Shown here one piece after another: positions 16,435 to 53,658 of a stretch of DNA of 64,000 nt; the first letter of the stretch is position 1, and every line of letters starts with the position of its first letter. The position numbers and the translations under genes are program-made. The DNA comes from a virus. The notes below the pieces were generated by a model. That model searched no databases, had not been told where the DNA came from, and was given only the letters and a program-made list of their open reading frames with translations. The DNA lies in IMG/VR virus record IMGVR_UViG_3300024239_000017; one strand, 5' to 3'.

Positions 16435-16466
16435 CAAACATACGAAAAATTTTTGACATATGCAAA
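16435..16466 (-). promoter_or_regulatory. class A promoter copy 4
   Basis: TTTG-N20-TATGTTTG. Confidence 0.85.
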
Positions 16467-21497: not shown

Positions 21498-21733
21498 TAT
21501 TCAAAACTTATATCAAAACTTAAATCAAATATTTTATTATGGAAATGTGTATATTCTGATAAATACTGCATAAAATATATTTTATTATAATCAAAAAAAC
21601 ACGGATCTACATTAAAATTATTTTCTTCTTCTTTACAATTTTCTATACGGAGATAGTTATTATAATCTTCTTTTTGTTTTTTAGCACAATCACTATCTCC
21701 GCTGGTATTAAAATTTAATTTATTATTTTCCAT
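21497..21733 (-). CDS. small virion-associated protein (likely start MENNK)
   Basis: C-terminal IFDLSFDISFE; coupled to fibre gene. Confidence 0.55.
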   Translation of the reverse strand: MENNKLNFNTSGDSDCAKKQKEDYNNYLRIENCKEEENNFNVDPCFFDYNKIYFMQYLSEYTHFHNKIFDLSFDISFE

Positions 21734-24700
21734 TATTATCCTCATTAGGTATTAAATCAAATATATGATAAAAACTATTCTGTTGATTAAAAAATTCATA
21801 TGATTTTCTAGTCTCACCTAACGTATTGGCTGAACTCACTGTATAAGGATTTCTAAGTGAAGTAGCTTTTATTATACCGCTTACATATTTATTCATATCC
21901 TTATATTTACCACTTTGAACAGTTTCATCAATATCCCCAAATTTAACTATATTAGTCATATTTTTAAGGGTTGTTCCTAACATTATAGGATTTTGAACCG
22001 CTTCATAATAAGCCTGCCCTATACCGACATTACCTGAAAAAGTTTCATTAAGATTTCTCATAGACATATATGCCAATAATTGTAACATATAATTATCCTC
22101 TTCGTCATCGTCATCAGCTGCTTTTTTAAGTAAAATTGTTAATGCCAACATTGCAAATAATGTTGCGCTAATTGTCATAGACATTTTAACATTCTTTCTA
22201 GCAACCTCATCTAATTCATCATAAGAATCTTTAAGTTTCTTTTTATCTTTTATAAAATCTTTAAGTATTTTATACACATATTTATATGAGAATACCAATC
22301 CTTCTTCTTCACCGTCTATATCATATCTTCTTCTAGAAAACATGTTGCTGGTTGCCAATACTAACCATTTTTTAAGAGATAGTACAAATCCCCAAGAAGG
22401 GTCTCTACCTGCCGATCCTTCGTTATATTTGGCAATTTCCATTGTTGTAAGCTCTACAACATTTCTTATTGCTCCCATAACAAATACTTTATCTCTTTCA
22501 ATATCTCCTTCGTATCCTTTACTGTTTAAGAGACCCATGTTAAAACTACCATCGTCATTTATAAAATCATACATACTGTCCGATTCATATAAATCAAATT
22601 TAGCTTTAATATCTCCATCAGACATTGAAGGATTTTTTGTTTTTTCAGATATTGAAAACTCTCTCCAAGATTGAAATTTACCGTCTATAAGTCTATATTC
22701 CATTAGTTTACTTAAAGTAGACTGTGCTTGTAAAGGAAAGTTTGTTATAGACATCGCCGCAAATCCTGCTTGTGGTAACAATCTTAATACAGTATTATAT
22801 TGTGAGTTTGCATATCTATCTTCTATATTATATACCCCAAATGAGTACATTATTCTATTTATCTTTGCTTCTGGATTAAATTTACCTACGTCTTTTAGAG
22901 AGTCTGGAAACATTTTTGCAAGTGTTTTAGCAGCTCTTTTATTGGAGGTAGAATATATAGTTCTACCTGTCATTGACATTAATAAATTTTGAGTAAGACC
23001 ACTGGTAAAGTTTGTTATACCTACAATCGGTGAAAAAGCTAAAGACGTTTTAACACCTAGGTGTTTTAAACCTATTAAGAATTTAGATAAATCTATTACT
23101 CTATCTGAGCCTGGTAGTTTAAATTGAACTTTTGCTGGAGTTGTTTTACCATAAAAGTTAAAATCAAACATTTCGTCAATCATTTTGCCATAATTAGTAT
23201 CAGTAGGTTTTTTACCATTTTCAAATTCTAATGCCTCAAAACCCTGTTTCATAGCTACAGCATCTTGCCAATGTTTCTTTCTCTGATCTCTTAAATTTGC
23301 ATTATTTAATCTCCATACTAAACTATGAAATACATCGTTTGTTAATTCAGATTTGCCTAACTTGTAATACCCATATTTAGGAATTGTTTTTGATTTATAA
23401 TCAAACTCGTTATCATCTGGTCTGAAAGATAACTGTTCTGCAAAGTAATCCTTTACTTGATCCCATTTATTACCTTTGTTTACAAACGCAGAAGTTCTCT
23501 CATAATCTGTTATTCTCTGTTGAGGTCTAAGAAATATATATCTTTTATTTAATGCATCCTCTTTTTTAAGACCAAGTAGGTGAGCATCCATCATTAATAT
23601 ATATATATTTAAATCTTCTTTATTATTTAAAATATCAAAGCCTGTTTTATATTTTTCATCTACATTTGTAAATCCTGCCATTCTATGTAGAATATTATAC
23701 TTCTCTTCATCAGAAGTAGAATTAAAATACTCATCATATAAATCTTCTATTTTTTCTTCGAAAGGTACTGAAAATTTAAAAGACGGAGTTATTCTCATTA
23801 ATTTTAAAGGTTTACCGTTATATAATACTTCATCAGTATTAGAGTTAAGGTAATTTTCAATTAAAGCTTCTACATCTATCTTTCCACTTTTATAACTTCT
23901 TATAAAATCATCGTATTCGTTATTTGCGTCATATCTTTTATACCAAGAGGGTGAGTTCGTAATATAAAATGCCTTTAATATACCTTCTGATGTTTCTGGT
24001 AATCCTAAATTTCTAGCATTCTGTTTATAAGTCTGTATAAAAGATGTATTTTTATTATGTTTAATATCTCTTTTTAAGTTCGCCAAAGAACCTCCATATC
24101 TAGATACATTGAAGTTATTTCTATCTGAGAAAAATCTCTCTATTTCCTTAATTGAAGCCATTTCAAATGGTTTACCTATGATATTTTCAAAATACTCATT
24201 AAAAGCTTGATTAAATCTCAGTGAAGTTTCTCCGTTACCTCTTAAATATAATTCAGTAATATCATTTTTTTCAAATAATTTAGATATGTTATCCATCTGA
24301 TTACCATTATCATCAACGACATTTCCTCTAACTATGTTAGACATTTTATCCTCCAACTCTGTCATTATTTCTTTATCATGCAATGATATGCTTGCAATGT
24401 CTACTTCTTTATAATCATTTTTAAGTTTATACTTTCTAAGAATAAGCCTTTTTTGCATTGCTAATTCTTTATATCTTTTTTCTAGTATATTCATATGGAA
24501 CATGTCCATCATAGACGCCCCACTATTATAAAACCCTTTAAAATTTATTCCAGAAGTTCCGTCATTGCTTTCCCAATATTCATCTGTTGGTTCAAACATT
24601 AAAGAATTATCTAACCATTTTATTATTTCTTTTGTTTTTTCTGCTTTAGGTAAGCCTTTCTTATTAAGAGATTTTATAAAACTTCTATATTCGTTAGAGA

Positions 24701-27176
24701 AGTTATCTTTTATAGTATCTCTGCTTACAGATCCATTATTATTTAAATCAAGTATAGATATACTATTCCACTTCATATAATTAAAAGCCAATTCAGCTTC
24801 TTTTGAAGTATTTGAGCTATCATATAGAAATACTAATTCTTTATCGTCTGGTTCATTTTCCCCATAAAATAAAGTATGTCTAGGATTTATAGATACTACG
24901 TTACTCTTATCTATATTTTCCAAATTTTTAATATCTTTATAAAAATATACTTTGAAACCAGTTTTAAGTTCTCCTATTTGATTATATGGGTTAGAATCTT
25001 CTCTTCTTTGTTCCAACATTATAGTATCATCTGATCTTCTTCTTGACATATTTTTTTGAGCCCTGTAAAAATCAGAATTCCATATATCTCCTTTTATGTT
25101 TAAACTATCTAGTTTATTATTAAAGTTTATTAATCTGTCTTTTACTTTTTGATCTAACCATTTTTCATTTACTACTTTTTTATCATATAAATATAAATAT
25201 TTGTAATAATTTTCGTCCTTATCGCTAAGTTCTTTTATACCAAACTGTTGATACATATCAACATATTCTTCAAAACTCATTGATCCATATATGTCAGGAT
25301 ATACTTCTTTAAGTATTTCTAACTCAAAAGATCTAATATCATTTTCGATTTTTTCAGAGTCAATATCTGATTTAAAATAACTTCCTGATATAAAATTCTT
25401 TAATTTATTTATATGAGGAATTAACGGTAACATTTTCTCCTGCATGTCTTGCATAAACTTATGCACATATGTATTATTCAAACTAGCTATTATTACAGCG
25501 AGCTGTCTAACAAATAGATTCGATGCTTTAAAAGTATGTCCAAATAATCTTATAAATCCAGAAGTATCTGTTTGTAATCTTTTTATACCATACTCGGCAT
25601 TATTTACCATTTTTTTTATTTCTTCTTCGGATTTATTAGGTTCATATTTAGCTATCATTCTTTCTAATACAACTTCTTTATTATGTACTTGTTGTATATT
25701 ACTAAAGTTACCTTTTAATAATGTCAATTCTCTTAAAGCCTTTTCTCCCTTCTGAGTAATGTACTCTTTAAACCTACTTAATTCTTCTTTATTTTGTGGA
25801 GAAAACTGTGGGTTATTAATATCTAAATTATTAAAGAATGCCCATGCTCTACTAGCTATTTCCTCGGTACCTAAAAGTTGCTCTATAGTATACGCTAATT
25901 CTTGAGGTGTAATTTCCTCATCTGCTAACATACTAAGCTCTTTATTTGAGCTTATGGCTACAGAAATTATAGTATTGAATAATTGATCTACTTCTTTTTT
26001 TAATTCATCATCTAATATTACGTTATTAGGTGTTTTAACCAACTGCTCTATTCTTTTTAAAGTTGTATCATCTACAGAATACATTACAGATAACGTAGGG
26101 GACATATTTGGATTTAACTTACTTGAAAGTGTTTCATTATATAATCTATTATTTATATCTCTCGCCATCTCATTAATACTGTTATTTAAATCGGTATTAA
26201 ATTTAGATTTAACAAAGTTTATAAATCCTTTTAATATTTCTATAAGTTTATTATAGAAATTCATTTCTGTTTCAGTCTTACCTTCTGTTGTAAAATCACT
26301 TTTTATAGCATTAGATAACATTTTACCCAGTACTTCTTTTCTAACTGCCGTCTCTAATAAAGCAGGGTCTGTTATTTGTTTCGAATATATTTTTCTGTAC
26401 GAATCTGCAAACTCTATATATTCTTTTGTATTGTTTACTGTTTTTAGCATTCTAGATATTTCGTCTTGATTCCAAGATTCTATTACAAAATGCGAAAACT
26501 CTTCTGTCAAAGTATCTAATTCTATCTCACCTTTTGATAAAGCTACTATCTTTTGGTTTAAATCTATTAATGCTTTTGCGTTTGGTTCTACACCGAATTT
26601 TAATTTATAATTATTTTTATAAGACTCTATACTCGTAAAAGAAAATCCTAATTTTTTCATAAATGAAACAATCATATTAGATAACTGTTTCTCATCGTAT
26701 TTTACAGGTTTTTCCTTTACTGTTTTACTAAGTTCATTATATATTTCTACTGCCTCAATAACTACATTAGAAAGTTCAGGTAAATCTCTTGATGTACCCA
26801 TTTTAAAATCACCAAATGAAAATTCTAATCCATTTCTTTTAAATGAATTATATTCTGAAGTACTTAATAACTCTCTTTCTAAAATATCCGCTGCCATTTC
26901 GTCAACAGCCTTAAATGTATTATCAGATATTTGTTTTTCATCTAAATAACCATTTTTTATATATTTTTGAATCTTTCCATTTTGAGTACTTTCGTCAAAA
27001 ATAGGTACTTCTATTTTACTGTCAAACTCCTCTCTTTCATTTAAAAATCCTATATAATATGAGTTGGTAGTATTGTTTAATACCTCGTATAAAGAAGTGA
27101 ATATTTCTCCTTTATCTGAGGTATAAAATAATTTAGGTTCTCCAGTATTTTTATTTCTTATTGAACATTGTGACAT
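21723..27176 (-). CDS. giant internal virion (ejected cargo) protein, 1817 aa
   Basis: size and position in crAss-like cargo block; degenerate zincin EEFSH; C-terminal hydrophobic helix; single Cys at residue 4. Confidence 0.7.
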   Translation of the reverse strand: MSQCSIRNKNTGEPKLFYTSDKGEIFTSLYEVLNNTTNSYYIGFLNEREEFDSKIEVPIFDESTQNGKIQKYIKNGYLDEKQISDNTFKAVDEMAADILERELLSTSEYNSFKRNGLEFSFGDFKMGTSRDLPELSNVVIEAVEIYNELSKTVKEKPVKYDEKQLSNMIVSFMKKLGFSFTSIESYKNNYKLKFGVEPNAKALIDLNQKIVALSKGEIELDTLTEEFSHFVIESWNQDEISRMLKTVNNTKEYIEFADSYRKIYSKQITDPALLETAVRKEVLGKMLSNAIKSDFTTEGKTETEMNFYNKLIEILKGFINFVKSKFNTDLNNSINEMARDINNRLYNETLSSKLNPNMSPTLSVMYSVDDTTLKRIEQLVKTPNNVILDDELKKEVDQLFNTIISVAISSNKELSMLADEEITPQELAYTIEQLLGTEEIASRAWAFFNNLDINNPQFSPQNKEELSRFKEYITQKGEKALRELTLLKGNFSNIQQVHNKEVVLERMIAKYEPNKSEEEIKKMVNNAEYGIKRLQTDTSGFIRLFGHTFKASNLFVRQLAVIIASLNNTYVHKFMQDMQEKMLPLIPHINKLKNFISGSYFKSDIDSEKIENDIRSFELEILKEVYPDIYGSMSFEEYVDMYQQFGIKELSDKDENYYKYLYLYDKKVVNEKWLDQKVKDRLINFNNKLDSLNIKGDIWNSDFYRAQKNMSRRRSDDTIMLEQRREDSNPYNQIGELKTGFKVYFYKDIKNLENIDKSNVVSINPRHTLFYGENEPDDKELVFLYDSSNTSKEAELAFNYMKWNSISILDLNNNGSVSRDTIKDNFSNEYRSFIKSLNKKGLPKAEKTKEIIKWLDNSLMFEPTDEYWESNDGTSGINFKGFYNSGASMMDMFHMNILEKRYKELAMQKRLILRKYKLKNDYKEVDIASISLHDKEIMTELEDKMSNIVRGNVVDDNGNQMDNISKLFEKNDITELYLRGNGETSLRFNQAFNEYFENIIGKPFEMASIKEIERFFSDRNNFNVSRYGGSLANLKRDIKHNKNTSFIQTYKQNARNLGLPETSEGILKAFYITNSPSWYKRYDANNEYDDFIRSYKSGKIDVEALIENYLNSNTDEVLYNGKPLKLMRITPSFKFSVPFEEKIEDLYDEYFNSTSDEEKYNILHRMAGFTNVDEKYKTGFDILNNKEDLNIYILMMDAHLLGLKKEDALNKRYIFLRPQQRITDYERTSAFVNKGNKWDQVKDYFAEQLSFRPDDNEFDYKSKTIPKYGYYKLGKSELTNDVFHSLVWRLNNANLRDQRKKHWQDAVAMKQGFEALEFENGKKPTDTNYGKMIDEMFDFNFYGKTTPAKVQFKLPGSDRVIDLSKFLIGLKHLGVKTSLAFSPIVGITNFTSGLTQNLLMSMTGRTIYSTSNKRAAKTLAKMFPDSLKDVGKFNPEAKINRIMYSFGVYNIEDRYANSQYNTVLRLLPQAGFAAMSITNFPLQAQSTLSKLMEYRLIDGKFQSWREFSISEKTKNPSMSDGDIKAKFDLYESDSMYDFINDDGSFNMGLLNSKGYEGDIERDKVFVMGAIRNVVELTTMEIAKYNEGSAGRDPSWGFVLSLKKWLVLATSNMFSRRRYDIDGEEEGLVFSYKYVYKILKDFIKDKKKLKDSYDELDEVARKNVKMSMTISATLFAMLALTILLKKAADDDDEEDNYMLQLLAYMSMRNLNETFSGNVGIGQAYYEAVQNPIMLGTTLKNMTNIVKFGDIDETVQSGKYKDMNKYVSGIIKATSLRNPYTVSSANTLGETRKSYEFFNQQNSFYHIFDLIPNEDNNGK

Positions 27177-27196
27177 ATTTTCTTTTCTATTTATTG

Positions 27197-27204
27197 CAAA
27201 TATA
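27197..27204 (-). promoter_or_regulatory. -7 box TATATTTG (no clear -33 box)
   Basis: in AT-rich gap before the 1817-aa gene. Confidence 0.5.
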
Positions 27205-27244
27205 TAAATAATATTTGAAATATTAAAATATATTAATTATTAAA

Positions 27245-30200
27245 TTAACATTTGACATCACTATCTTTCCAATAGTCCAAACCTTCTGTATATATGGATT
27301 TATAAACTCCTAATGATTGCTCTTTTGTTATAAAAGGTACTGACGAAATATCTTTAAATAATTCAGACTCTATATAATCATTTTCTACTACATTTATATT
27401 TTCAATATTTTCTAAACTATATCTAATATCATTAGTATTTGCAGAATATGTTCCTATATTTTCTGTTGCTGATTTTATTTGGTTGGGAGAGAAAACTGCA
27501 TAAGTATTGTCTCCTGTATCTTCTATTAATTTAATTCCATCCTTATTATTATTTATTAAGGATTGAGTCATGTCCCATTCACCTCCATCAAATAATTGCC
27601 ACAACTCACTGTTTTTATCAATTCCAAACTCATATAAGAAACTTCCTTTTTCATCTTTAACTTTATAGTCTATATCTTCAGTAATTTTACTCCAATCTTC
27701 TAATTTTTTTATATTTAAAAATACTTCTTTTATATTTTTCTTTCCACCAAAGTTTTCAATCCTTACATTTGCAGCATTTTCTGCATAATATTTATTTTCA
27801 GAAAAAAAATGTAATTTACTGTCTACATTATATGTAACTACACCTCCACGAATCCCTTGTTTATTAGTGAATTCTGTAAATTCATTATTAGTTCCATGAT
27901 AAACAACCAAAGGCTCACCGTTTTTATCTACAACTTTAGAAGCGTTTTTCGCATCGTTTTCCCAATCACCAAACCAATCTTTAAACCGTTTTGTTCTTAC
28001 GTCTAGCCATTGTGCTTCGTTTAGATTAGTAGCTTTTCCATTTGGTGCTTTCATAAAAGTACCATTCGCTTGTGCTTCTGCTTTTATAGCTTCCCTCTCT
28101 GATTGTATTTCTGCTAATACTTCTGGTTTTATATTACCGCTATAATCCAAATCATTATTATCAATTAAACTGAACATTGTATTTCTATCTCTATCTCCTA
28201 TAACTTTTTTAAAGGATTTAGATCTATTGTACACTTCCCTAAAGTCTTCATCTTCTAGATTATTCTTACCTCTATATTCTGATAATAATCTTGTCCCAGC
28301 AAATGTGCCACCATCTAAATGAATAGGTTTTCCATTTTTAATTCCCCAATTGGCTTTTCTAGAAAAATCACCAAATAACACCTCTCTATTAAGAATATAA
28401 AACATTCCGTATTTGTATAAGGTATCTATTAATTTTTGTGATTGACTATCAAAATCAATTTGAGAAAATTTTGAAAAATCTGCAAACATTTTTTCTGCCC
28501 TTTCTGTTCCTATTTGTTCTCCCTCTACATCATATGTTGGTACTAAATCCCTTGCCTTTATAGGAGGTACTTTTTCTATTATAACATAATTTAGACCTCT
28601 TTCGTATATATCAGGTAATAATTCTTCTTCTACTAAGTCATAGCTTCCCTCATAGATATTTTGCATTAGCCCTCTAGCTGTTTTTGCTATTTTTATTACC
28701 TTTGTATCGTCTAGCTCATAAACAATTCTATCAGAACCTGCGCTTATTCTTTTTAATTTGGGAATATCAAATCTTTCTCTAGCTGTAAGGTCTGTGTCGT
28801 AATCAAAACCTATTCTTCTTCCTACTCTTAGTAATGAGTCTAATTTTTCCTCATTGAACATTTCAGCATTCACAGCATATGCAAATTCTTTAACAGTCAT
28901 GTTGGAAACATCTTCGGCAGTATAACCTGTTATACCTACCATATTTTTAAATGCGTTCCATATACTTTCCAACCATTTTGCAATATCTGATTTTTTTTCT
29001 CTATTGATAATTTCTACACCATTGTTAGCTATTAACTCAGCCATTACTTCTTCCCAATAAGCATCGCTGTTTTCTTTAAGATCAGGATATAATTTATTAA
29101 CTCTTTCAATATAATTCTTAACTTCTGATTTATTTTCTTTAAGTAATTTTATACCTGCTTCAAATAAATCTCTTCTGTTCTCTATTAACCATCCTATCAT
29201 TGGATGTGAAAATTCGTGTATAGTAGTATTTAATACGTCATTAGATTCCTTATTAATAAATATCTGTCGTGTATCTTTTCTATAAAATCCACCTACTACT
29301 GTAGCTAAACCATTGTCAATTAGTGATTTACTAAAACTTGTTACATTTTCTATAGTGACAGCACTATCGTCAAAAACTACATAATTAAATCCTCTTGCTG
29401 TATCAGAGGTAGCTCCACGAGAAATAGATTCTGCTGGATATTTTATACCGTCAATACCTGCTTCTAGTAAGAATAGAGAGGCTGCTTTATCAGAGCCTAA
29501 TTGTCTTGATAAGTTTTTATATAAAGCGGATCCTTCAATATTTTTAGTATTAATACCCTCAGATAACATCTTTATTATAACGTCATTTTTAGAAATTGCC
29601 AAATCATTTATTTTTTTAAATACTTCTTCTGATACTGTATTATCCCATTCTATAAATGTATATTGTTCTGGTGATTTACCTTTATGTACTGTTACGCTAT
29701 AAAGGTGGGGTTTAATAACTGATTTTCTTAAAGCTTTTATCTCTTCGGCTATTCCTTCTAAATTTTTAATAGTATTAAGCTTTTCTTCTTCTATTGCTTC
29801 ATATATTTTAAAAAATAAGTCTTCTGAGGGTTCCTGTGAATATAACTCTAACATTTTATTATGATGATCTAAATCGTTTATAGTTGTATATCCCTCTAAT
29901 AGCATTCTAGAATCTTCCAAGTATCCTTCTAAAGTATAATACTCAAGTATTTCATACATACGTTCCTTAACATAAGAAGGTGTTACTTTAACTATAGACT
30001 TCTTTATTGAACTTATTTTCATATCTATATGACGTAATACCTCTGCCCTACTTTCACTGCTATATATACCATATATTCCGTTTGAGTTAAGTTTTGTAAT
30101 TATCCTATTAGGTATATTTGGTTCCTTTTTTATAGTAGATAATTTATGAGCGTAATACTTTGCTATACGGTCTATTTCAGTAAAGTATAATCCCCATCCG

Positions 30201-31237
30201 AAAGCTTGATTTCCCTCCCCTATTCCTATTTTTTCGGTAGAAAACCTATCAAATTTATGTGGAGACCCATGTTTTAAAACAAGCTCTCTCGCAATATTTT
30301 CAGAAATACCAAGTTGTTTTAATTTTTCAACTATCTCATCATTAGTCATTAAATATACGTCTGATGTAAGACCTTTATTACTTAGTACCTTTACTACATT
30401 ATTTAATAATATAGTTTCATTATTTATATACTCTGGTGATTTAGCATTTAGTACTTGATTTTCGTCAAGTATTGCCCATGTTTTAAAATCTTTATAAGGA
30501 GCTCTATTTCCACCATAGAAACCGTCTATACCCTCTTCTATAGAACTATCTATTCTAGGTATTATTTTATTACTTACCTCTTCTACTTCTTCGTATTTTC
30601 TTATATTTAAAAATACTGGTTCAAGGAATGAATCTTTTGGTGCATATTTTTGCATAAAACTTTCAGAAGTATTGAAAGCATCTATTCCTGTAGAATATGT
30701 CAATGCAAGTTTTTTATCTTCTACAAATAAAGCAGTATTACTAAATCTATAATCCTGTGGTTTTTCACCGTCTTGTTTGAAACTATTATACTCATTACCA
30801 TAAATTCTGTAACCTTGGAACTGTGCACCATTTATATTACTTGTTATAGTTGAAGAAACATGTCCTGACCATACTATTTTAGGTTGACCATTTTCATCAA
30901 CCACTTTTGAAGAATTTTCAGGATCATTTAACCAATCTCCGAAGAAGTTTCTAAATCTTTCAGAATAAACTTCGCTAACCAATTTGATTGCTTCTTCTTC
31001 AGAATATCCCATTTCTTTATATGTATTATAAAGAATACTTGGTTTTCCATTAGGAGCTAAATTTAATGGGTTGTTATTATTTAATTTTATTGCTTCTGAT
31101 ACATCTATACCTGATTGGTTTTCATCATTAATATCAAATTTAATATTATCTGTATTTGGTGTATATGAAAGGTTTACAACTTCTACTGAAGTTATATCTC
31201 CGTTATCGTTTCTATTTACAACACATTTTTTTGACAT
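27245..31237 (-). CDS. polyvalent cargo protein: ART-like domains, HExxH zincin and kinase-like domain
   Basis: two FGDW...VD.NG.P modules, HGSPHKFDRF..IG.GEG.QAFGWGLYF, HEFSH, AGSDRIVY/VIKIAK/GDF..ANWG/LDGG, VYHGT..AVFSPNQIKSA. Confidence 0.75.
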   Translation of the reverse strand: MSKKCVVNRNDNGDITSVEVVNLSYTPNTDNIKFDINDENQSGIDVSEAIKLNNNNPLNLAPNGKPSILYNTYKEMGYSEEEAIKLVSEVYSERFRNFFGDWLNDPENSSKVVDENGQPKIVWSGHVSSTITSNINGAQFQGYRIYGNEYNSFKQDGEKPQDYRFSNTALFVEDKKLALTYSTGIDAFNTSESFMQKYAPKDSFLEPVFLNIRKYEEVEEVSNKIIPRIDSSIEEGIDGFYGGNRAPYKDFKTWAILDENQVLNAKSPEYINNETILLNNVVKVLSNKGLTSDVYLMTNDEIVEKLKQLGISENIARELVLKHGSPHKFDRFSTEKIGIGEGNQAFGWGLYFTEIDRIAKYYAHKLSTIKKEPNIPNRIITKLNSNGIYGIYSSESRAEVLRHIDMKISSIKKSIVKVTPSYVKERMYEILEYYTLEGYLEDSRMLLEGYTTINDLDHHNKMLELYSQEPSEDLFFKIYEAIEEEKLNTIKNLEGIAEEIKALRKSVIKPHLYSVTVHKGKSPEQYTFIEWDNTVSEEVFKKINDLAISKNDVIIKMLSEGINTKNIEGSALYKNLSRQLGSDKAASLFLLEAGIDGIKYPAESISRGATSDTARGFNYVVFDDSAVTIENVTSFSKSLIDNGLATVVGGFYRKDTRQIFINKESNDVLNTTIHEFSHPMIGWLIENRRDLFEAGIKLLKENKSEVKNYIERVNKLYPDLKENSDAYWEEVMAELIANNGVEIINREKKSDIAKWLESIWNAFKNMVGITGYTAEDVSNMTVKEFAYAVNAEMFNEEKLDSLLRVGRRIGFDYDTDLTARERFDIPKLKRISAGSDRIVYELDDTKVIKIAKTARGLMQNIYEGSYDLVEEELLPDIYERGLNYVIIEKVPPIKARDLVPTYDVEGEQIGTERAEKMFADFSKFSQIDFDSQSQKLIDTLYKYGMFYILNREVLFGDFSRKANWGIKNGKPIHLDGGTFAGTRLLSEYRGKNNLEDEDFREVYNRSKSFKKVIGDRDRNTMFSLIDNNDLDYSGNIKPEVLAEIQSEREAIKAEAQANGTFMKAPNGKATNLNEAQWLDVRTKRFKDWFGDWENDAKNASKVVDKNGEPLVVYHGTNNEFTEFTNKQGIRGGVVTYNVDSKLHFFSENKYYAENAANVRIENFGGKKNIKEVFLNIKKLEDWSKITEDIDYKVKDEKGSFLYEFGIDKNSELWQLFDGGEWDMTQSLINNNKDGIKLIEDTGDNTYAVFSPNQIKSATENIGTYSANTNDIRYSLENIENINVVENDYIESELFKDISSVPFITKEQSLGVYKSIYTEGLDYWKDSDVKC

Positions 31238-31239
31238 AA

Positions 31240-33267
31240 TTAACAGAATTTTATCTGGTTATCTTTTATTTCTCTTGTTTCTTTTACTTTAATTTTACCG
31301 CTACTATCAGCTACTACCTCTTCAAAAGTTGCAGGAGTATAGTCTGGTTTTTGTAGATTATAATTCATATATCTATCACTAGTATCTACTTTTGCGTATG
31401 TATTAGTATCTACTTTTTCATATAAAGTATTATTAACTTTTATAAAATCGCTGATACTATTAGGTGCATATATTAAATTATTTTTTTTAACATATTTACC
31501 TTTAAAATTATCTAACTGATGTAAATTATTCGCAAAAAAATCTCTTTGATTTACATTGTCTATCTCGTTATCTTGATTACTGAAATATTCCAATGATTCG
31601 TTACCTGATAATTTTGAATACGTGACTAATGAATTAAACATATTCTCTGATAATAAATTTTTAATAAGTGAAAAAGAATATTCACCTATTATAGGTTTTG
31701 CTTCTATCCCTCTATTCGATATATAGAATAGTTCTGAAAGCTGTTTATTGTTAATAAGTTCTTTATTAAATTCTATAATAAAATCATCTATATTTATTTC
31801 TTTAGATATGCCTACTTCTCTTGTTGATGGATTATCTTTTATACTAAGTAATATTTTGTAAGCTGTCAATTTTTTAATATTATTAACGTCTGATTCATCT
31901 CTCAAATAATCATTTGCTTTTGTAGAGACATATTTATCTAAATCTTCTATAAGTAGATCATTATTAATAGGTATATTTTTAACAGATAGAGTTCCTTTTG
32001 GAAGTAAAAAATCATTTTGTAATATTAAATCGTATAGTTCTTCTAAACTTTTAGTATTATCTATTCTTTGATAGATATTATCATTTACTTTTATTACTGA
32101 ACTTTCTTCAAATAATTTTTCCTCAGATCTGTTAGTTTCTATATTTATAAAATTACCCTCTCTATTAATTTTATCTACTATTTTTATAACAGGTTTAGTT
32201 TCTTTATTAAAAAACAAATCGTAAGCATCTGAAAAATCTTTCAATGATTCTTTTAATGAATCATCATTAATTCTTTGTATATCTATTAAAACATTGTAAT
32301 AGGAATCTAAAAAATCCATTATTTCATTATAAGACTTATTATAAAATATTTCGTCTATATTAGAAAGATCTATGCCTTTTTCAGCTGATTGCTTTTTAAT
32401 ATTATCTAAATATCTTTCAACTAATAATGTATCTGTTACAAAATATCCAGCTGGTAATTCTTTTATAAATTCTATTTGATTTAATATACTATTATAATAC
32501 TCTTTAACGTCTATAGTCTGCTCTAATCTAGTATATGTTGATTCTTTTTTCTCGACTATATCTCCTGAGTATTCATCAGTTTCATAAGATGGTATAGATT
32601 GTTTATTTCTTAAATCTACTAATATTTTTTTTATTAATTCTGGATTATTTAATACCACCTCGTCTCCAATCTCGTTGGCTTTATTTAGGATTTCTTCTTT
32701 TGTTGTTAATCCTATATAATTATTGTATAAATTAGTTAGTATCATATCAGGATTTAATTTATCAAATAATCCCTTACCTAATACAACATCATATTTTACA
32801 GTATTGAAAGTTTCATCTGTGGTGTTTAATTTGTAATAAAGATTTTTTATTTTTGAAATATTTTCATAATTATCTAATTCAAGTATATCCATACCTGAAA
32901 ACATTTCACTATTCTTTATTTTTTCTATATCTATGCCGAATATACCATCAACCGTAAATATATTTAAAAATTCAGTTTTAAAATCTTCTATATTTTTATC
33001 TGTTGTTGATAGATTTAGAATATCAATTCTATCCGAATTATTCAAATTGTTAGAATTGATTATATTATCGGCTTGATTAAAAGCTAGAATATTTTTAAGC
33101 GTTGGTTTAACATTTTGTGATTTAAATTCATCTAATAATGTTAACCCATATAAATCTAAAGCTTGTGCTGTATTATAATTTGTATATACCAATAATTCCG
33201 TCATTAATTTCGGATATGTTTTAGCACTAGGTATATTATTCTTAAAAGTTATTTCGCATTGTGACAT
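31240..33267 (-). CDS. internal virion protein, 675 aa (start revised to MSQC)
   Basis: the ORF-track extension spans a terminator and promoter; ATG 33267 lies 4 nt after TACTTTTG. Confidence 0.7.
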   Translation of the reverse strand: MSQCEITFKNNIPSAKTYPKLMTELLVYTNYNTAQALDLYGLTLLDEFKSQNVKPTLKNILAFNQADNIINSNNLNNSDRIDILNLSTTDKNIEDFKTEFLNIFTVDGIFGIDIEKIKNSEMFSGMDILELDNYENISKIKNLYYKLNTTDETFNTVKYDVVLGKGLFDKLNPDMILTNLYNNYIGLTTKEEILNKANEIGDEVVLNNPELIKKILVDLRNKQSIPSYETDEYSGDIVEKKESTYTRLEQTIDVKEYYNSILNQIEFIKELPAGYFVTDTLLVERYLDNIKKQSAEKGIDLSNIDEIFYNKSYNEIMDFLDSYYNVLIDIQRINDDSLKESLKDFSDAYDLFFNKETKPVIKIVDKINREGNFINIETNRSEEKLFEESSVIKVNDNIYQRIDNTKSLEELYDLILQNDFLLPKGTLSVKNIPINNDLLIEDLDKYVSTKANDYLRDESDVNNIKKLTAYKILLSIKDNPSTREVGISKEINIDDFIIEFNKELINNKQLSELFYISNRGIEAKPIIGEYSFSLIKNLLSENMFNSLVTYSKLSGNESLEYFSNQDNEIDNVNQRDFFANNLHQLDNFKGKYVKKNNLIYAPNSISDFIKVNNTLYEKVDTNTYAKVDTSDRYMNYNLQKPDYTPATFEEVVADSSGKIKVKETREIKDNQIKFC

Positions 33268-33271
33268 ACTG

Positions 33272-33302
33272 CAAAAGTATAAAAAAAATTTAATATTACA
33301 AA
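33272..33302 (-). promoter_or_regulatory. class B promoter copy 1
   Basis: TTTG-N19-TACTTTTG; about 55 bp identical to 45914-45969. Confidence 0.8.
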
Positions 33303-33321
33303 AAGTATTAATATTTATATT

Positions 33322-33347
33322 AAAAAACCTCTCTATTAAAGAGAGGT
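33322..33347 (-). terminator. intrinsic terminator
   Basis: ACCTCTCT/AGAGAGGT stem plus T-run. Confidence 0.8.
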
Positions 33348-33352
33348 CGTTT

Positions 33353-36300
33353 TTAACACATATTGTCTTCTGATTCAAATATCCCCTTCATGTCTACAGT
33401 GCTTATACTTGATACTGCTTTTTCTGGAATATCTTTAGTTGCTTCGTTTATATTATCACCTAATTTGAATACTAATTTATTACTCATAAAAGGATCTTCC
33501 ATATTTATGTAAATAGTTCTATCTGATTTAAGTAATTCTTCTTCACTTGAAATGTCTATTGTATCATACACATTTGATAATGTATTTTTAATACTATTCA
33601 GATTATAATTTTCACTAGTTACTGCTGTAGATTCATTTAATAAACCATAAGTGTCTAATAAAGCGTTTAGTTTAAAGAATTTTGCTTCTTTACTTATAGA
33701 ATCATTCACTATATTGTCTACGTCAGCATCTAAATCTACATTTTCAGGCTTAACATTTATAGGAAAAGCAATATTATTATTACCGTATTTGAAAACTACA
33801 ATAGGTGATTTTTTACCTGATTTAGTTAACGGTCTTATATATTGGTCATTATCTATTTTTATATCGCCTTTAAAAGTTTTAACTACCCCATCATTATCTA
33901 CATATCCATAAGAAACCACTTTAGATTCGTCTATATTGTTTTCTATTGGTTTGGAATCTGATGTCAATTGTATTATAGGTAAACCTAGGTAAGATTTATC
34001 TACTTTTATTGAATATGTTTTAGTAGGATTTTTAATCACTTTTTTTCTCAAAGCTTTTAATTCCGCCCATTGTTTAGAAGTAGTATTATCCGTTCCTTTA
34101 AGAATTTGCACTAACTTACCGTTATGTTTAACATATATTACACCTTTTGATTCATATTCTGTAGAAGATAATCCCTGGTTATAGTCGTTATTAGGATCAA
34201 ATTCTAAAGTTACTTCATCGCCTGATTTTAAGCTATTTAAAGCTTCCTTATCAAACATTATCTGCGTTCCATCAGAAGTTACTGTAAACTCAGATTCTTT
34301 AGGGCTCAGTGTTCCGTCAGAGTTAGTAGAATATAATAAAACATAACTACTAGGTTGACCCGTTATAGCATATGCTTTAAGTCCAAGTAATGATAAAAAA
34401 GTATCTATATTACCCTCTATTGAGAAAGCTGTTTCATTTATATTTTTTACAAGATAATTATCTTCTGATAAATTTACTTTTATATTATTTTTACCTTCGT
34501 ATATTTCTGATACATACTCTACATTTTCATCATTTATATCTATCTTCTCTAAAATATTTTTATTACCATTAGAATCTATTTCATAAACCACTATTTCAGG
34601 AGTTAGACCATTTTGTAAAGCACTATTAAGTATTGAAGATAGTTTTATATGTGATAATTCATATCTATCTCTTCTTTTTTTAATATAAGCTCCGTCATAA
34701 ACTAAACCTGTTTTTTCTGATCTATACCCTTCGTCCAGTTCTACATTTTCTACTTGATGTATCAAGCTATTTAACTGCTGTTCAGAAGTTTCTATATCCT
34801 GTTGTTCAGAAGATTCTTTTATATTTTTAAGCTGATTATAAAGATTTATTACATCTAATAAACTTACACCTTCGATAAATAAGTTATTTACTATATTAAA
34901 AGGAGATAGTTTTTCTCTTAATACTGCTAATCTTTTTTTATCAGTAGAATTTCTATTTTTCTTATTAGACAATTCTATTAATTCATCTATATCTTCTTGC
35001 TCTGGTTTACCTATATTTGCAAGTGTTTCTACATCAGTAAAATCACTCTCATATGAATTTTCTACTACCCATTTAAGTTGCTCATAAGGTGAAGAATTAG
35101 GATCGAATTCACTTACAGGATTTTTAATAGAAGCCAGTTCCATTTTTAATAAAGTAAGTTTCTTTGTAGCCGAAACATTGTCGTCCACTAAACCAAGAAG
35201 TATATCATTAGATAATTGTTCAATTTCTTCTTCTATTCTTATTTTTTTAGCAATAGAATCTACTTCACCATTTAATCTTGCTATCTCTTCTTCTAACCTT
35301 ATTACTTCTTTTTGTACTAACTCTACTTTTTTATCCTCTAGTTCTGATAATTTGTTTTTCAAATCTGATTCTAGTATTCTATTTTGTCTGTCTATTTCAG
35401 AGATTCTAGAATTTCTATCCTCTGTTTTAGAGATAAGTTCTTCATAAAGTTTTTCAACTTCAAGAACTCTTTCTGCAAGTTCTCTGATTTCTCTATTTTT
35501 TTGTTCTGTGAATTCATTTTCTAATTTATTTAATAAATGATTATATACTATTGCATCTGCTGTACTACCTTTAAAAGAAATTATTCTTCCGTTTCTAGCT
35601 TGTAACTGTACAACATAGTTACCATTTTTATCTTTAAAAATACTATTATCTATGGTGCCATTTCTTAAAGTTACTTTATATAATTTACCGTTTATATAAG
35701 CTTCATTTCCCTCAATAAGTATGTCATCTTCCTCTAGTTTTTTAAGGTCTTTGATGTTAGAAGTATCTACTTTTTCTAATGGAAGTGTTTCTTCTTGTAT
35801 ATCTACTATTTCATCTTCATTTACTATCTGAAGTATACCTTTATTTATTTCTAGATTACCTACTATTACATCCCCATTTGGTTTTATATATTCATACTGA
35901 GTATAATTACTTTCTTTAACGGTACTAATATTTTTTTCAATTGTTTGTTTAGGAACTAATTGATTTTCAATACTCTCTATTTTAGACTCTATTTCTTTTA
36001 TTTGATTATTAAGGTCTTCAACTATAGGATCTAATTCATCTGTAGTAATTACTTCTTTTTCATTTAAATCGTCTATTTGTTCTTGTATTGAAGCTATTTT
36101 CTCACTTAACTCTTCATTAAATTCTCCATTAAGTATATTTGATAATTGTACCTTATTATAATTTAATTGAACAGTTTTTAAATCTATTATTAATGTCTTA
36201 TTTTCAGTATATGTTTTATCAAAATTATCAATTAATTTTTTATGATTTTCATAGTACTTTTGCTCTAATTCAGTTAGCTCGTTTTTACTATTTAATTTAT

Positions 36301-39214
36301 CATATACATGTTTAATATCTGAAGCTGTTGGTTTATAGTCTTCTGACAATTTATCTTCTGTAATTACCTCTTTAGTTTCTTGTAAAGACTTATTTTTTAT
36401 ATACTCGCCCTCAACATATTTATTAAACAATTGTTTTAATGTATCTCTAGTTAAATCATTAATTGATTTATTTTTCTTGGCTCTTAATGAACCAAATAAA
36501 CCATTATATGATTTTGGAGAAAATTCTTGATTAGTTATATTATTTATTAGATCAGAATATGATTTATAAGCGGTTGTAGCATTGTCATATTGATTAAATA
36601 ATTTAGATAATAATATCTTATCATTTGGACTTAATTCTAATCCTTGTATAGCTTTATTTAAGTCGTTTACTTCATTATCAAAATTATCTAAATCTATTCT
36701 ACTAGCATAACCAGTCTTACCCATTTTTGAGTAGAAATTATCTAATATTGTTTTTTCTAACATAGATAATTTTTCTGATGCTTTAGATAACTCTTCCTGT
36801 GCTAATGCTATATCTCTATTAAGTTTAATTTTTTGTTCTGCTGATTCTGGAGAAACTTCTTTATTATTAAGTTTCACCATTTTATCTGTAAGTCTACTTA
36901 TTTTACCCTTTGCTTCACTAACTATTTTGTTTAGATTGAAATAATTTTCTCTTTCTAAATTAGTCATATTTTTTAAAGCAGTTATAGCACCAAGTTTTTC
37001 AGAAATTTCTTTTCCTGCTAATGTCTGTGATAATTTATTTTGTATAGCATCAAATGTTTGTGATGCAAATCTTTCATTAAATTTAGACATTGCTGTTGAG
37101 AAAGCTAAAGCATTTGATAACATTTCTCCGTTTACTTGAACAGTTTTATCACCAACTTTAATATCTGATAAACCTGCTGTATTATTTCCAAAAATATATC
37201 TTCCAGCTTTTAAAGCATTACCATAATCATCTGATAATTCATTTATATACTGAATTTGTTCATTTTTGTAATCTTCCACTTCTGATAAATCAAGACCTGT
37301 ATTATCTGCTATGACTTGTGGATCTATACCTTTTATGGTATCTACCATATTTTTTACAAATACCTCTTCTTTTCCTATACTATGATATGCGTCAAGCATT
37401 GACACCATTGTCTGAGCTTGTAAAGAAGCTTGAAGTAATTTATCCTCACTATTTTCCGCTTTACTTAATTTTTCACTAAGTGCTTGAAATCTATTAGCGT
37501 GAGAAAATAATGCTGTAGTCCACTCATTAGTGTACTGGTTAGATGAAATTTCATTAAAGAACTTATCACCTTTATTATAAACTTCCGCTATTTTTTCTTG
37601 CGTTTTATATTGTTTAGAAACAGTTTCATTACCTGTTACAGTTCCTACTCCGCCCATAAGTCCACCTATTAGTGCACCTATTATTACTTCCTCCCTACCT
37701 TCTTTTGTGCCAAACTGATCTTTCATGGCCTTACTAAAGGCATCTATGTAGTTTGATGTGACATTTGTATATTTTGGATCATAAGAACTGGCAACATAAT
37801 TTTTATATGTATTACTGGCTACACCTTGCATTCCCTCTTCATATACACCCTCTACAAGACCGCCTTTTATAATAGGTGATGCATAAGCTAATGATTTTTG
37901 CAAAAGAGTTGGTTTTAGAGCTTTGTAAATTCCTTCGGAAGTTTTCTCTACACCCATTCCTAGTAATGCGCTATTTAATATTTTACCGTTACTAGTTACA
38001 GCTTTTGATAATGGATTACTTAAATTTAAAAAATTACCCATCATCATTAAATTAGATGGCATTAATATTGCCATATTAGCAAAAAATACACCATTTGCAG
38101 AACTACTTAACTTATCAGAAAATTTGTTTATTTCTTCCTCTGTAGGAGTTGTACCTCTTTCTCTATGAAAATCCCAAAATTTCTGTTCTGCTTCTTTAGC
38201 ATAATGTCTCGCTTCAAAACCAGCTTCGTATAAAGGTGATGTTAAAGCAAATCTTGTTTTTACTAACATGTCACCCATTTTACCTTTGCTAGCTACTTTA
38301 GCTAAATCTTTAGAAGCTGTTTCTCCTAGATTTGACATTATACCTTTAAACCAATTAGCACCTTTACCTATATTGCTTTCTACTTTTGATGCTACAGTCA
38401 TTTCAGGTGTAGTCATTAATCTAAGGGCTCTAGCTACTTTATTACCTTTGGATACTAATTCTCCTGTTTTCAATGCAGATCTCGCTGCTGTAGAAGATAA
38501 ACTTACACCACCTGTAAGTGTTGCTAGTATAGCTTCTGCGGCAAGTAATCTAGTAGTAAATTCTGCTCCGCCTAAAACTTTATCAAATGTTTGTAGATTA
38601 AGTCCTAAATTTTGTTCTCTTTCTACTTCATTATAATAATTTTTATAATCGAAATTTGTTTTTGTAGTTAAATCATCTACCCATTTCATATAATCATTAT
38701 CATATATGGCATCAAATCTACCTGATATTGCAGCCGCCCCTATTCCATAAACACTTCCAACTAAATCCAATGGTGCTTTTGCTGTATTGAAAAATAATCT
38801 TTTTACAGGATTCATAAATTTTTCAAAGTCAGTTTGCATTGCTGACAGTCTAGCATCATTATCTACACCATAAACATATGATTTATATTTAGGTGTCCAT
38901 TTAGCTGAATCTAATGCTGATTGTTCATGAGTATCCCTAATATCAATAGTTCTATCAATATCTATTTTATTTTTATTTGGAAACGCACTCTCTACTATAC
39001 TATCAGCGCTTTCACCCAGTTTATTAAAAGAGTCCATTCTTTGTAATGAATCAAACCTAACATTATTGGTGAACGCCAATGTTGCTGGATCTGGTACAGC
39101 AGGTGCTGTTGGTAGATTATTAAGATCCATTCCGTCTACTTGTGTAGACGGTGGAACTATTGTATCAGTGAAACTTGATGTATTTATTTGTGGTAAATAA
39201 CTATTTGGATCCAT
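33353..39214 (-). CDS. giant internal virion/ejection protein, 1953 aa
   Basis: Gly/Ala hydrophobic segments (EGVYEEGMQ, IIGALIGGLMGGVG), long coiled coils; only Cys is the last residue. Confidence 0.7.
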   Translation of the reverse strand: MDPNSYLPQINTSSFTDTIVPPSTQVDGMDLNNLPTAPAVPDPATLAFTNNVRFDSLQRMDSFNKLGESADSIVESAFPNKNKIDIDRTIDIRDTHEQSALDSAKWTPKYKSYVYGVDNDARLSAMQTDFEKFMNPVKRLFFNTAKAPLDLVGSVYGIGAAAISGRFDAIYDNDYMKWVDDLTTKTNFDYKNYYNEVEREQNLGLNLQTFDKVLGGAEFTTRLLAAEAILATLTGGVSLSSTAARSALKTGELVSKGNKVARALRLMTTPEMTVASKVESNIGKGANWFKGIMSNLGETASKDLAKVASKGKMGDMLVKTRFALTSPLYEAGFEARHYAKEAEQKFWDFHRERGTTPTEEEINKFSDKLSSSANGVFFANMAILMPSNLMMMGNFLNLSNPLSKAVTSNGKILNSALLGMGVEKTSEGIYKALKPTLLQKSLAYASPIIKGGLVEGVYEEGMQGVASNTYKNYVASSYDPKYTNVTSNYIDAFSKAMKDQFGTKEGREEVIIGALIGGLMGGVGTVTGNETVSKQYKTQEKIAEVYNKGDKFFNEISSNQYTNEWTTALFSHANRFQALSEKLSKAENSEDKLLQASLQAQTMVSMLDAYHSIGKEEVFVKNMVDTIKGIDPQVIADNTGLDLSEVEDYKNEQIQYINELSDDYGNALKAGRYIFGNNTAGLSDIKVGDKTVQVNGEMLSNALAFSTAMSKFNERFASQTFDAIQNKLSQTLAGKEISEKLGAITALKNMTNLERENYFNLNKIVSEAKGKISRLTDKMVKLNNKEVSPESAEQKIKLNRDIALAQEELSKASEKLSMLEKTILDNFYSKMGKTGYASRIDLDNFDNEVNDLNKAIQGLELSPNDKILLSKLFNQYDNATTAYKSYSDLINNITNQEFSPKSYNGLFGSLRAKKNKSINDLTRDTLKQLFNKYVEGEYIKNKSLQETKEVITEDKLSEDYKPTASDIKHVYDKLNSKNELTELEQKYYENHKKLIDNFDKTYTENKTLIIDLKTVQLNYNKVQLSNILNGEFNEELSEKIASIQEQIDDLNEKEVITTDELDPIVEDLNNQIKEIESKIESIENQLVPKQTIEKNISTVKESNYTQYEYIKPNGDVIVGNLEINKGILQIVNEDEIVDIQEETLPLEKVDTSNIKDLKKLEEDDILIEGNEAYINGKLYKVTLRNGTIDNSIFKDKNGNYVVQLQARNGRIISFKGSTADAIVYNHLLNKLENEFTEQKNREIRELAERVLEVEKLYEELISKTEDRNSRISEIDRQNRILESDLKNKLSELEDKKVELVQKEVIRLEEEIARLNGEVDSIAKKIRIEEEIEQLSNDILLGLVDDNVSATKKLTLLKMELASIKNPVSEFDPNSSPYEQLKWVVENSYESDFTDVETLANIGKPEQEDIDELIELSNKKNRNSTDKKRLAVLREKLSPFNIVNNLFIEGVSLLDVINLYNQLKNIKESSEQQDIETSEQQLNSLIHQVENVELDEGYRSEKTGLVYDGAYIKKRRDRYELSHIKLSSILNSALQNGLTPEIVVYEIDSNGNKNILEKIDINDENVEYVSEIYEGKNNIKVNLSEDNYLVKNINETAFSIEGNIDTFLSLLGLKAYAITGQPSSYVLLYSTNSDGTLSPKESEFTVTSDGTQIMFDKEALNSLKSGDEVTLEFDPNNDYNQGLSSTEYESKGVIYVKHNGKLVQILKGTDNTTSKQWAELKALRKKVIKNPTKTYSIKVDKSYLGLPIIQLTSDSKPIENNIDESKVVSYGYVDNDGVVKTFKGDIKIDNDQYIRPLTKSGKKSPIVVFKYGNNNIAFPINVKPENVDLDADVDNIVNDSISKEAKFFKLNALLDTYGLLNESTAVTSENYNLNSIKNTLSNVYDTIDISSEEELLKSDRTIYINMEDPFMSNKLVFKLGDNINEATKDIPEKAVSSISTVDMKGIFESEDNMC

Positions 39215-45134: not shown

Positions 45135-45138
45135 TTAC

Positions 45139-45909
45139 TTATATATTTAATTTTATATCGTTGCTTAATACTGATTTTGATAATGGTACTGTAGATAAAA
45201 CTTGTTGTTTTTCCAACTGTTTTTGTTTTAAAACTTCCTCTATATATTTATTTTCTTCTTCTACCATTTTTTTATTCTGTTCTTGTACTTTCCTTTCTTC
45301 CTCTAATTTAGAATCTCTTATGTATTCTTGCTCTGTTTTATAAGTATTCATTACTGTATTTACAAAATCTGGACTTTTTTGATATAATTCTTGTGTTTTA
45401 CTATCCGTCCAATCTATTACACCGTTTTGCATACCTTTGATTATATCAGTGTATTCTTTTAAATAAGGATTTTCATAATTATTGCCGTAATCATTAGATA
45501 ATGAATTGTTATTTGTTATTCTATCTATATATTCTTTATTATATCTTCCCCAGTTAGATTTATCTGTTCCACCATGGTATTCTCTTATTGCCGTATAATA
45601 ATCTCCATTATTTCTATCTGCCGATTCTTTTAATAAATAGGCCGCCGCTAACGAAGCCTGATCTGGATTCCAAGCGTCTACACCATACTTTTTAAGTACA
45701 TTATTTCTAGTTGAAGGAATAAACTGATATACCCCTTTTGCATTAGCACTTGACACCTGGTTTTCATTAGATCTTTCACCTAATAATCTTACAGACCTTA
45801 ATATATGTAATGGCACTCCTGTTTTTTTAGAAGCTATTTCATCTGTTTTATCGTAAAAAGGGTCGGTGTATTTTCTACCACCTTTCTGTAAAAACTGTTT
45901 TAATCTCAT
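45139..45909 (-). CDS. virion-associated lytic transglycosylase (SLT-like)
   Basis: catalytic GERS, SSANAKGVYQFIPST, A.YL, YHGG. Confidence 0.8.
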   Translation of the reverse strand: MRLKQFLQKGGRKYTDPFYDKTDEIASKKTGVPLHILRSVRLLGERSNENQVSSANAKGVYQFIPSTRNNVLKKYGVDAWNPDQASLAAAYLLKESADRNNGDYYTAIREYHGGTDKSNWGRYNKEYIDRITNNNSLSNDYGNNYENPYLKEYTDIIKGMQNGVIDWTDSKTQELYQKSPDFVNTVMNTYKTEQEYIRDSKLEEERKVQEQNKKMVEEENKYIEEVLKQKQLEKQQVLSTVPLSKSVLSNDIKLNI

Positions 45910-52258: not shown

Positions 52259-52259
52259 T

Positions 52260-53171: not shown

Positions 53172-53658
53172 TTTTTACATTATTGTTTTTATCTGTTATA
53201 GCTTTATTAGAAGCACCTAAATATATATAGTCTGCTTTACTGACACCGTTCATTAAATTTAAATACCTGTATCCGTTCTTTATATTATTATCAATTCCTT
53301 CCATAATCTTTGTACTAAATTTAAAGTCCATAGACCAGTATTTAAATATGCTATTTTCTGTTGGTATAAATGTAGGCATGTATCTTTTCAAATGTTTTCC
53401 TCTTAATGTAGTTCTAAATGTAAAAGGGTGTCGGTATACAAAAAAATAACCTATTCTATTTATTAATACCCCAGACCTACTTTTTATAATATTGTCCCCT
53501 ACTTTTTTTAAAAACAATCTTATTATCCTATCATTATCATAATGATGAAGTCTATTTTTAGTATTATCTTTTGTGCGTTTTCTGTAGTAATTTCTAAAAT
53601 CTTTATCTAGAACCTTTAAGGTTGATGGTGTCAAACAATTTACCGTACTTTGTCTCAT
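53155..53658 (-). CDS. IHF/HU-like basic protein
   Basis: I...F...I.....G..I..IG.F pattern; crAss-like synteny between ring genes. Confidence 0.5.
   Translation of the reverse strand: MRQSTVNCLTPSTLKVLDKDFRNYYRKRTKDNTKNRLHHYDNDRIIRLFLKKVGDNIIKSRSGVLINRIGYFFVYRHPFTFRTTLRGKHLKRYMPTFIPTENSIFKYWSMDFKFSTKIMEGIDNNIKNGYRYLNLMNGVSKADYIYLGASNKAITDKNNNVKNDKIQ

Follow-up and report, generated by a model that had tools for sequence, protein, structure and literature searches.

Paired terminal cysteines in the cargo block of a crAss-like phage and a candidate disulfide tether

The closest described relatives of the genes reported here are the cargo blocks gp47-gp50-gp49 of crAss001 (PMC10172136) and gp67-gp66-gp65 of phi14:2 (PDB 6VR4). 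The cargo of crAss001 must partly unfold to pass constrictions of <50 A, and the order of exit was left open (PMC10172136). We analyzed a 64,000-nucleotide stretch of the virus record IMGVR_UViG_3300024239_000017 (the window) and found that four giant proteins, most likely packed and injected as cargo and here called members 1 to 4, have cysteine (Cys) only at the ends that face one another in the series. Members 1 and 4 are homologous to proteins of the two described blocks, and the Cys rule is common to both. The block in the window differs from them in that it has no DFDxD motif, its member 2 is just 675 amino acids (aa) long, and its gp49 equivalent is divided between two proteins and preceded by a polyvalent cassette. 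The gene layout and the Cys rule are as in phi4:1 and phi17:2 (Lightbulbvirus; gp38-gp37-gp35) and crAssE-Sib (PMC7886860, PMC11054128), in which there are three members rather than four and the proteins are annotated as structural only.

The window is from an Epsilon-group crAss-like phage related to Cellulophaga phages phi4:1 and phi17:2. These two and crAssE-Sib are its nearest cultured relatives (24-28% identity), and phi17:2 has been placed in the Epsilon group, reportedly without the transcription block (PMC7886860). Pfam matches to PF25731 (76.5 bits), PF24228 (38.6) and PF25702 (69.2; cut-offs 27) identify the muzzle and ring proteins, and the virus record is 132 kb at 92% completeness, in agreement with the genome of ~150 kb that characterizes the Epsilon group. 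The block has the expected order, with a gp47 homologue at the front (member 1 family hidden Markov model (HMM) vs crAss001 gp47, E 2e-22) and a gp49 homologue at the end (member 4 family HMM vs crAss001 gp49, E 3e-28). Family profiles link member 1 to phi14:2 gp67 and member 4 to phi14:2 gp65 too. The members and their Cys codons, taken from the window translation, are as follows.

33353..39214, minus strand: member 1, 1953 aa; homologue of crAss001 gp47, phi14:2 gp67 and phi4:1 gp38
33356-33358, minus strand: Cys codon of member 1
31240..33267, minus strand: member 2, 675 aa; putative scaffold, in the gp50/gp66 position of the block
33256-33258 and 31243-31245, minus strand: Cys4 and Cys675 codons of member 2
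27245..31237, minus strand: member 3, 1330 aa; polyvalent cassette
31223-31225 and 27248-27250, minus strand: Cys5 and Cys1330 codons of member 3
21723..27176, minus strand: member 4, 1817 aa; homologue of crAss001 gp49, phi14:2 gp65 and phi4:1 gp35
27165-27167, minus strand: Cys4 codon of member 4

Cysteines at the facing ends of the four proteins

There are six Cys in the 5,775 residues of members 1-4 (1953 + 675 + 1330 + 1817 aa), each at a facing terminus. The sole Cys of member 1 is its final residue, C1953; member 2 has Cys only at C4 and C675, member 3 only at C5 and C1330, and member 4 only at C4. An earlier, sequence-only reading of the window had counted these Cys by hand, and its counts and positions are exact on the translation. 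Cys makes up 1.44% of the window's remaining minus-strand open reading frames (ORFs), a rate at which 5,775 aa should contain ~83. If the number of six Cys is taken as given, the probability that they land singly in the six facing 6-residue stretches is ~1e-15. The 981-, 995- and 256-aa neighbor proteins have no Cys, confirming another claim of that reading, in contrast to the 29 of the 2088-aa muzzle.

The terminal Cys are conserved in homologues of the individual members. For member 1, 47 of 49 homologues have exactly one Cys, ≤6 residues from the C-terminus; the two that are Cys-less are probably truncated, and there was no internal Cys in 96,577 aa. Homologues of member 4 have a Cys within the first six residues (40 of 42) and never one at the C-terminus (0 of 42). 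A profile search of 1.8 billion representatives with 50% clustering yielded 140 homologues of member 2 (607-2807 aa), of which 131 have an N-terminal Cys, 139 a C-terminal Cys, 130 both and 0 neither, with 16 internal Cys in a total of 147,757 aa.

The pattern was also found in whole chains. We assigned chains by homology in 23 phages, including crAss001, phi14:2, DAC15, crAss002 (with the start re-chosen at Met33), p-crAssphage and Fpv20; these chains range from two to six members. All of the 48 junctions in these chains carry both Cys, and there was no Cys at any of the 37 outer ends (0/18 first-member N-termini and 0/19 last-member C-termini), with merely 30 internal Cys in 117,159 aa. The terminal-Cys pattern is a real, strongly conserved feature, and the expectation that terminal Cys would be kept in homologues and co-occur at each junction was borne out.

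The rule specifies exact, testable residue pairs in cultured phages. The predicted pairs are gp47 C2339 with gp50 C5 and gp50 C2404 with gp49 C5 in crAss001, gp67 C1797 with gp66 C3 and gp66 C2179 with gp65 C3 in phi14:2, and gp38 C1957 with gp37 C4 and gp37 C516 with gp35 C3 in phi4:1. A crAss-like two-member block in Leptolyngbya phage Lbo-JY46 (PP438436), for which a cyanobacterial host is on record, also follows the rule and has no DFDxD.

Gene fusions, gene splits and the domain at junction 3

Where neighboring members are fused, the terminal Cys are absent from the joint, as the sequence-only reading had anticipated. Members 3 and 4 are fused in 14 relatives, each of which has a single Cys, at the N-terminus. 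Members 1 and 2 are fused in two proteins (P0289 and P0220), also with no Cys at the joint, and the gp47+gp50 fusion of Fpv20 has one Cys in 4,419 aa. We considered whether other long member 2 homologues with C- or N-terminal extensions are neighbor fusions; profile searches identified just P0289 and P0220 (with member 1) and none with member 4. The member 2 homologues P0302, P0227, P0309, P0203 and P0246 (range of the family, 600-2800 aa) bear inserted payloads: RadC-like JAB, ART-PolyVal, DUF3293, PolyA-polymerase plus HD, and LPD23.

Conversely, Cys pairs arise where genes are split. In one relative (locus L017) the chain has six members, and its two further junctions each have a new Cys pair: the equivalent of member 3 is divided into three pieces (665, 183 and 320 aa; L017:11998-17530), with Cys at both ends of each. 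The genes located between these pieces are a GIY-YIG-like one of 306 aa and a Cys-rich one of 374 aa. The new junctions have a short coupler pair, with a donor helix ending in Cys and an acceptor start of MAC-x-Y-x-YNN, that is an insertion relative to member 3 of the window; starts resembling this acceptor occur in several member 2 homologues and in a protein of Lbo-JY46. Elsewhere (L018:16575-16919), a 114-aa ORF with Cys at 4, 110 and 113 lies between two chain members; it could represent a further link of minimal size or be there by chance.

Junction 3, between members 3 and 4, is within a folded domain. In an alignment over this junction, split forms place the Cys, the chain break and Met-x-x-Cys opposite a continuous loop of the fused forms, and the distance from a conserved Trp to a TGEP-like motif is 13 residues in fused forms versus 7 + bond + 7 in split forms. 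We modeled one fused 3/4 joint with AlphaFold2 (predicted template modeling score (pTM) 0.70, with lower confidence around the joint loop). Its top match among 48,161 chains was the N-terminal domain of phi14:2 gp66 (6VR4 residues 12-95; Z 8.2, root-mean-square deviation (rmsd) 2.5, 80 aligned; next unrelated match 6.3), and the two sequences align motif by motif. Because the match covers both sides of the joint (model residues 21-116), junction 3 cuts a single domain of solved fold, with the final ~45 residues of member 3 as its first half and the N-terminus of member 4 as its second. Judging from the model, the halves presumably re-associate, bringing the two Cys together. The same type of domain also comes after the N-terminal Cys hairpin in gp66 and gp49.

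In a quick tree (from a short search, and with long basal branches), deep Epsilon relatives were unsplit, split forms were basal in a 29-row clade, and re-fused forms were nested. The tree requires three changes, which is compatible with a single split in which the Cys pair was gained and at most two re-fusions in which it was lost. Based on the comparative predictions that were passed, we conclude that a head-to-tail link between different proteins is strongly implied by the sequences, and that the interpretation given in the sequence-only reading is supported in part.

Gene order, transcription and properties of the cargo proteins

The sequence-only reading had the chain assembled in gene order. 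This was not borne out; the order of the members follows homology rather than gene adjacency. gp47 is on the opposite strand in crAss001 and DAC15, and the crAss001 block is broken by an inversion. There are ~20 genes inside the block of crAssE-Sib, and in phi4:1 the block is interrupted by gp36, a gene without virion mass spectrometry (MS) support. One rearranged relative (L020:10001-22067) has member 2 after unrelated genes, with its N-terminal Cys kept, and the homologue of the 981-aa protein downstream of member 4. In crAssE-Sib (L003:18749-25151), the last member was deposited as a 281-aa ORF (Cys5) that overlaps an 1885-aa ORF in another frame, either through a sequencing error or through a real frameshift.

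In the window, a terminator and a promoter part members 1 and 2. These and the genes upstream of the block are as follows.

33320..33348, minus strand: intrinsic-terminator-like hairpin and U run, 3' of member 1 (-13.2 kcal/mol, z -4.6)
33272..33302, minus strand: Bacteroidota sigma-70-type promoter by motif match (TTTG, N19, TAnnTTTG), immediately 5' of the member 2 start
39201..45909, minus strand: three Cys-free upstream cargo genes (981, 995 and 256 aa), outside the Cys chain
45992..54350, minus strand: crassvirus muzzle (2088 aa) and tail ring proteins 1 and 2 (Pfam)

Members 1 and 2 are probably separate transcription units because the terminator and promoter stand between them. Comparable hairpins were found at the end of member 1 in relatives too. 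The promoter was matched to what we take to be the Bacteroidota consensus, and it has an identical copy at 45914-45944, ahead of the 256-aa gene. At both copies there are a mere 4 nt to the ATG, suggesting that the transcripts are nearly leaderless. Three identical 32-nt Bacteroidota-type promoter matches are on the minus strand in the replication region (502-533, 5130-5161 and 16435-16466). A 712-aa ORF with a TTG start was considered for member 2 and is ruled out by the terminator and promoter upstream of 33267. The start at 33267, to which the sequence-only reading had corrected this ORF, fits the hairpin and the promoter and is the same as that in full-length homologues.

Of the upstream proteins, that of 981 aa matches gp39 and that of 995 aa matches gp40 of phi4:1, and the 256-aa protein (window 45139-45909) carries an SLT domain. 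This transglycosylase domain is swapped for a glucosaminidase domain in relatives (L005:3109-3936 and L007:2633-3532). Outside the window and distant from the block, a Cys-free 1130-aa gene with QxGG repeats (phrog_24249; L026:727-4119, G000 53226-56618) may encode a further untethered cargo protein.

Both end members have a hydrophobic segment, as had been noted before: a hydropathy scan placed a Gly-rich one at residues 510-528 of member 1 and another at residues 1665-1683 of member 4. The inner members had been taken for exchangeable effector cassettes, which holds for the 1330-aa protein and not for the 675-aa protein, a conserved putative scaffold whose modeled structure weakly resembles the N-terminal, non-catalytic portion of the virion RNA polymerase of crAss-like phages. 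Member 3 has ART-PolyVal at residues 1104-1263 (91.7 bits, cut-off 31.2) plus a weaker copy, a zincin-like HEFSH at residue 674, and a kinase-like stretch at ~820-990 (recognized by eye and by phrog_4301; Pfam gave no match). Like polyvalent proteins, it combines several disparate effector domains, including ART-PolyVal, in a gene with a virion context.

The block appears to have no catalytic virion RNA polymerase. The catalytic motif DFDxD is absent from members 1, 2 and 4; member 3 has DYDTD, but inside the kinase-like stretch. The motif was also not seen in the member 2 family, to which the crAssE-Sib protein belongs. Our model of member 2 (predicted local distance difference test (pLDDT) 75, pTM 0.45, low-confidence termini) had a middling match to 6VR4 residues 97-894 (Z 7.1, rmsd 8.6, 383 aligned), which was its sole long match. 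The aligned stretch of 6VR4 stops at 894, and the catalytic motif sits at 1361. This fold match agrees with HHpred, which called the crAssE-Sib homologue of member 2 an RNA polymerase (PMC7886860, PMC11054128). Foldseek with the 675-aa model gave no match at E ≤ 0.001, sequence searches of the PDB with members 2-4 gave nothing significant, and profile searches found no HMM links between member 2 and gp50/gp66. A search of the genome with phi14:2 gp66 was empty and had no positive control; such empty family searches within the genome prove little because the same search overlooked the muzzle that Pfam detects. A search for related loci among viral contigs found no relatives. Based on the model, member 2 is probably a non-catalytic remnant that serves as a scaffold.

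In phi4:1, gp38, gp37 and gp35 are virion proteins detected by MS that obey the Cys rule, and gp36, which lies between them, has no MS note. By analogy, the four proteins of the window are most likely packed in the head.

A proposed tether, its alternatives and known systems

We propose that the four proteins are the Epsilon counterpart of gp47-gp50-gp49, the crAss cargo block, in which two proteins take the place of gp49. The members would be synthesized separately, in keeping with the terminator and promoter inside the block, and the C-terminal tail of each would dock onto the hairpin or half-domain at the N-terminus of its successor. The facing Cys pair would oxidize to one inter-protein disulfide, presumably in the released virion or the host periplasm, and this disulfide would take the place of a peptide bond. 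Such a tether could hold the membrane-anchoring ends, the scaffold and the effector cassettes in one thread of ~5,800 residues. It would be needed to keep the cargo connected because partial unfolding in the tail would break non-covalent contacts, and because Cys has been purged elsewhere, the correct pairs would form. More speculatively, cytoplasmic reduction could later release the effectors. Inter-subunit disulfides are present in crAss001 virions (PMC10172136).

We consider it likely that hetero-disulfides link the facing ends and stand in for peptide bonds. Strict, ordered ejection as a single thread is more doubtful, with a chance that we place just under even. On the complete proposal, that the injected cargo is a post-translational polyprotein joined by a docking-plus-disulfide coupler, delivered as one ordered thread and dismantled by host reduction, and that effector cassettes replace the RNA polymerase in the Epsilon group, we are evenly divided.

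Several points weigh against a disulfide tether. Assembly occurs in the reducing cytoplasm, and many of the hosts are gut anaerobes. A motif scan of the 92%-complete genome did not reveal a thioredoxin-like CxxC gene. The disulfide is inferred from comparisons of sequences and structure models. Some relatives tolerate internal Cys (7 in total in crAss002, 8 in p-crAssphage and 5 in DAC15 gp50), and the fusion joints in these relatives are not exactly locatable. The junction counts are not independent events because the sequences share kinship. With respect to partner specificity, the donor tails show little conservation beyond the Cys at junctions 1 and 2, and the same type of coupler is used twice in L017. 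Bayfield et al., using reduced and non-reduced MS, reported disulfides only in the tail and portal vertex of crAss001, and their maps left gp47, gp49 and gp50 unresolved (PMC10172136).

The same head-to-tail partners might instead bind metal through their Cys, for example in a Zn clasp of two donor and two acceptor Cys from neighboring copies of the chain. A clasp would function in the reducing cytoplasm and in anaerobes, would account equally for paired gain and loss, and is in keeping with a cargo copy number that is probably ~6. However, each end offers just one Cys, and His is not conserved in its vicinity (His ≤15 residues from the Cys in 16/130 member 2 N-ends, 10/130 C-ends and 1/47 member 1 ends), and the geometry of junction 3 suits a direct one-to-one link; we regard a metal clasp as unlikely. 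We find it rather less likely that the Cys are not bonded to each other and are handles for a third partner or enzyme (thiol exchange with the portal or tail, lipidation, thioester formation or ligation). Terminal Cys are typical modification sites, which fits such a role, as does the report of relatives in which the block is encoded as a polyprotein (bioRxiv 10.1101/2020.03.07.982082). However, the N-terminal Cys is found at positions 3-6 instead of 1, and the C-terminal Cys is followed by 0-8 variable residues, which leaves these Cys with no constant free alpha-amine or carboxyl; and a common handle would not miss both the outer ends and the fusion joints. We also rejected a split intein or protein trans-splicing, which would call for a HINT fold, a nucleophile at position 1 and a C-terminal Asn: Pfam detected neither an intein nor a HINT domain, the first Cys lies at 3-6, and the chains end in Cys plus 0-8 residues.

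Homotypic disulfides, forming a copy-to-copy ring like those of the lambda spanins, or disulfides that close the middle members on themselves are marginally less probable again. Phage spanins do use homotypic inter-chain disulfides (PMC6139136), and the middle members have exactly two Cys. Neither arrangement sits well with end members whose single Cys is invariably on the side facing inward, with the joint gain and loss of both Cys upon splitting and fusion, or with junction 3, where the two ends are halves of one domain. We give almost no credence to chance or drift, in which ejected proteins shed Cys and tolerate them just at unstructured ends. Cys depletion is documented in N4-like ejection proteins (PMC11445570), and the ends of the member 2 model are of low confidence, but tolerance cannot yield near-100% conservation, 0/37 outer ends or paired gains.

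The gene block was already known; the tether, which we infer, would be the categorically new element. Descriptions of terminal Cys or of a cargo tether were not found in the literature searched, which misses most subscription papers, and the key papers on crAss-like cargo mention neither. Also new are a lineage in which the polymerase motif is missing, a junction located inside a domain whose fold has been solved, a phylogeny that is compatible with gain and loss of the Cys pair, and chains of up to six members. The Cys rule offers a way to identify cargo proteins, plus their order, from sequence only. If the coupler reading is true, cargo genes would be free to split, fuse, move or extend, there would be a new route for repairing gene fission, and proteins delivered by phages would have a modular coupler of natural origin.

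Polyvalent proteins (Iyer et al. 2017, PMC5512222) are virion-injected multi-domain effectors with ART-PolyVal, zincin-like and LPD23 domains, types of domain that are also found in member 3 or in relatives of the window block, and these relatives swap payloads. The described polyvalent proteins are single polypeptides, whereas the unit in the window is apparently assembled from separate gene products; the words cysteine and disulfide were not found in the text of PMC5512222. The ejection proteins of N4 and DEV (PMC11445570) suppress Cys as the window cargo does, but retain no terminal Cys. Two-component spanins (PMC6139136) have inter-chain disulfides in a phage trans-envelope complex, but those bonds, as far as studied, are homotypic and have their role in lysis. 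The closest precedent is the split NrdA of phage Aeh1 (PMC3045599), in which a gene fragmented by a mobile endonuclease was rescued non-covalently by new terminal tails. L017 resembles it in having an endonuclease-like gene between the pieces. Aeh1 NrdA differs from the cargo chains in that it is a single, non-covalent case in a cytoplasmic enzyme, with neither a Cys pair nor a multi-protein chain.

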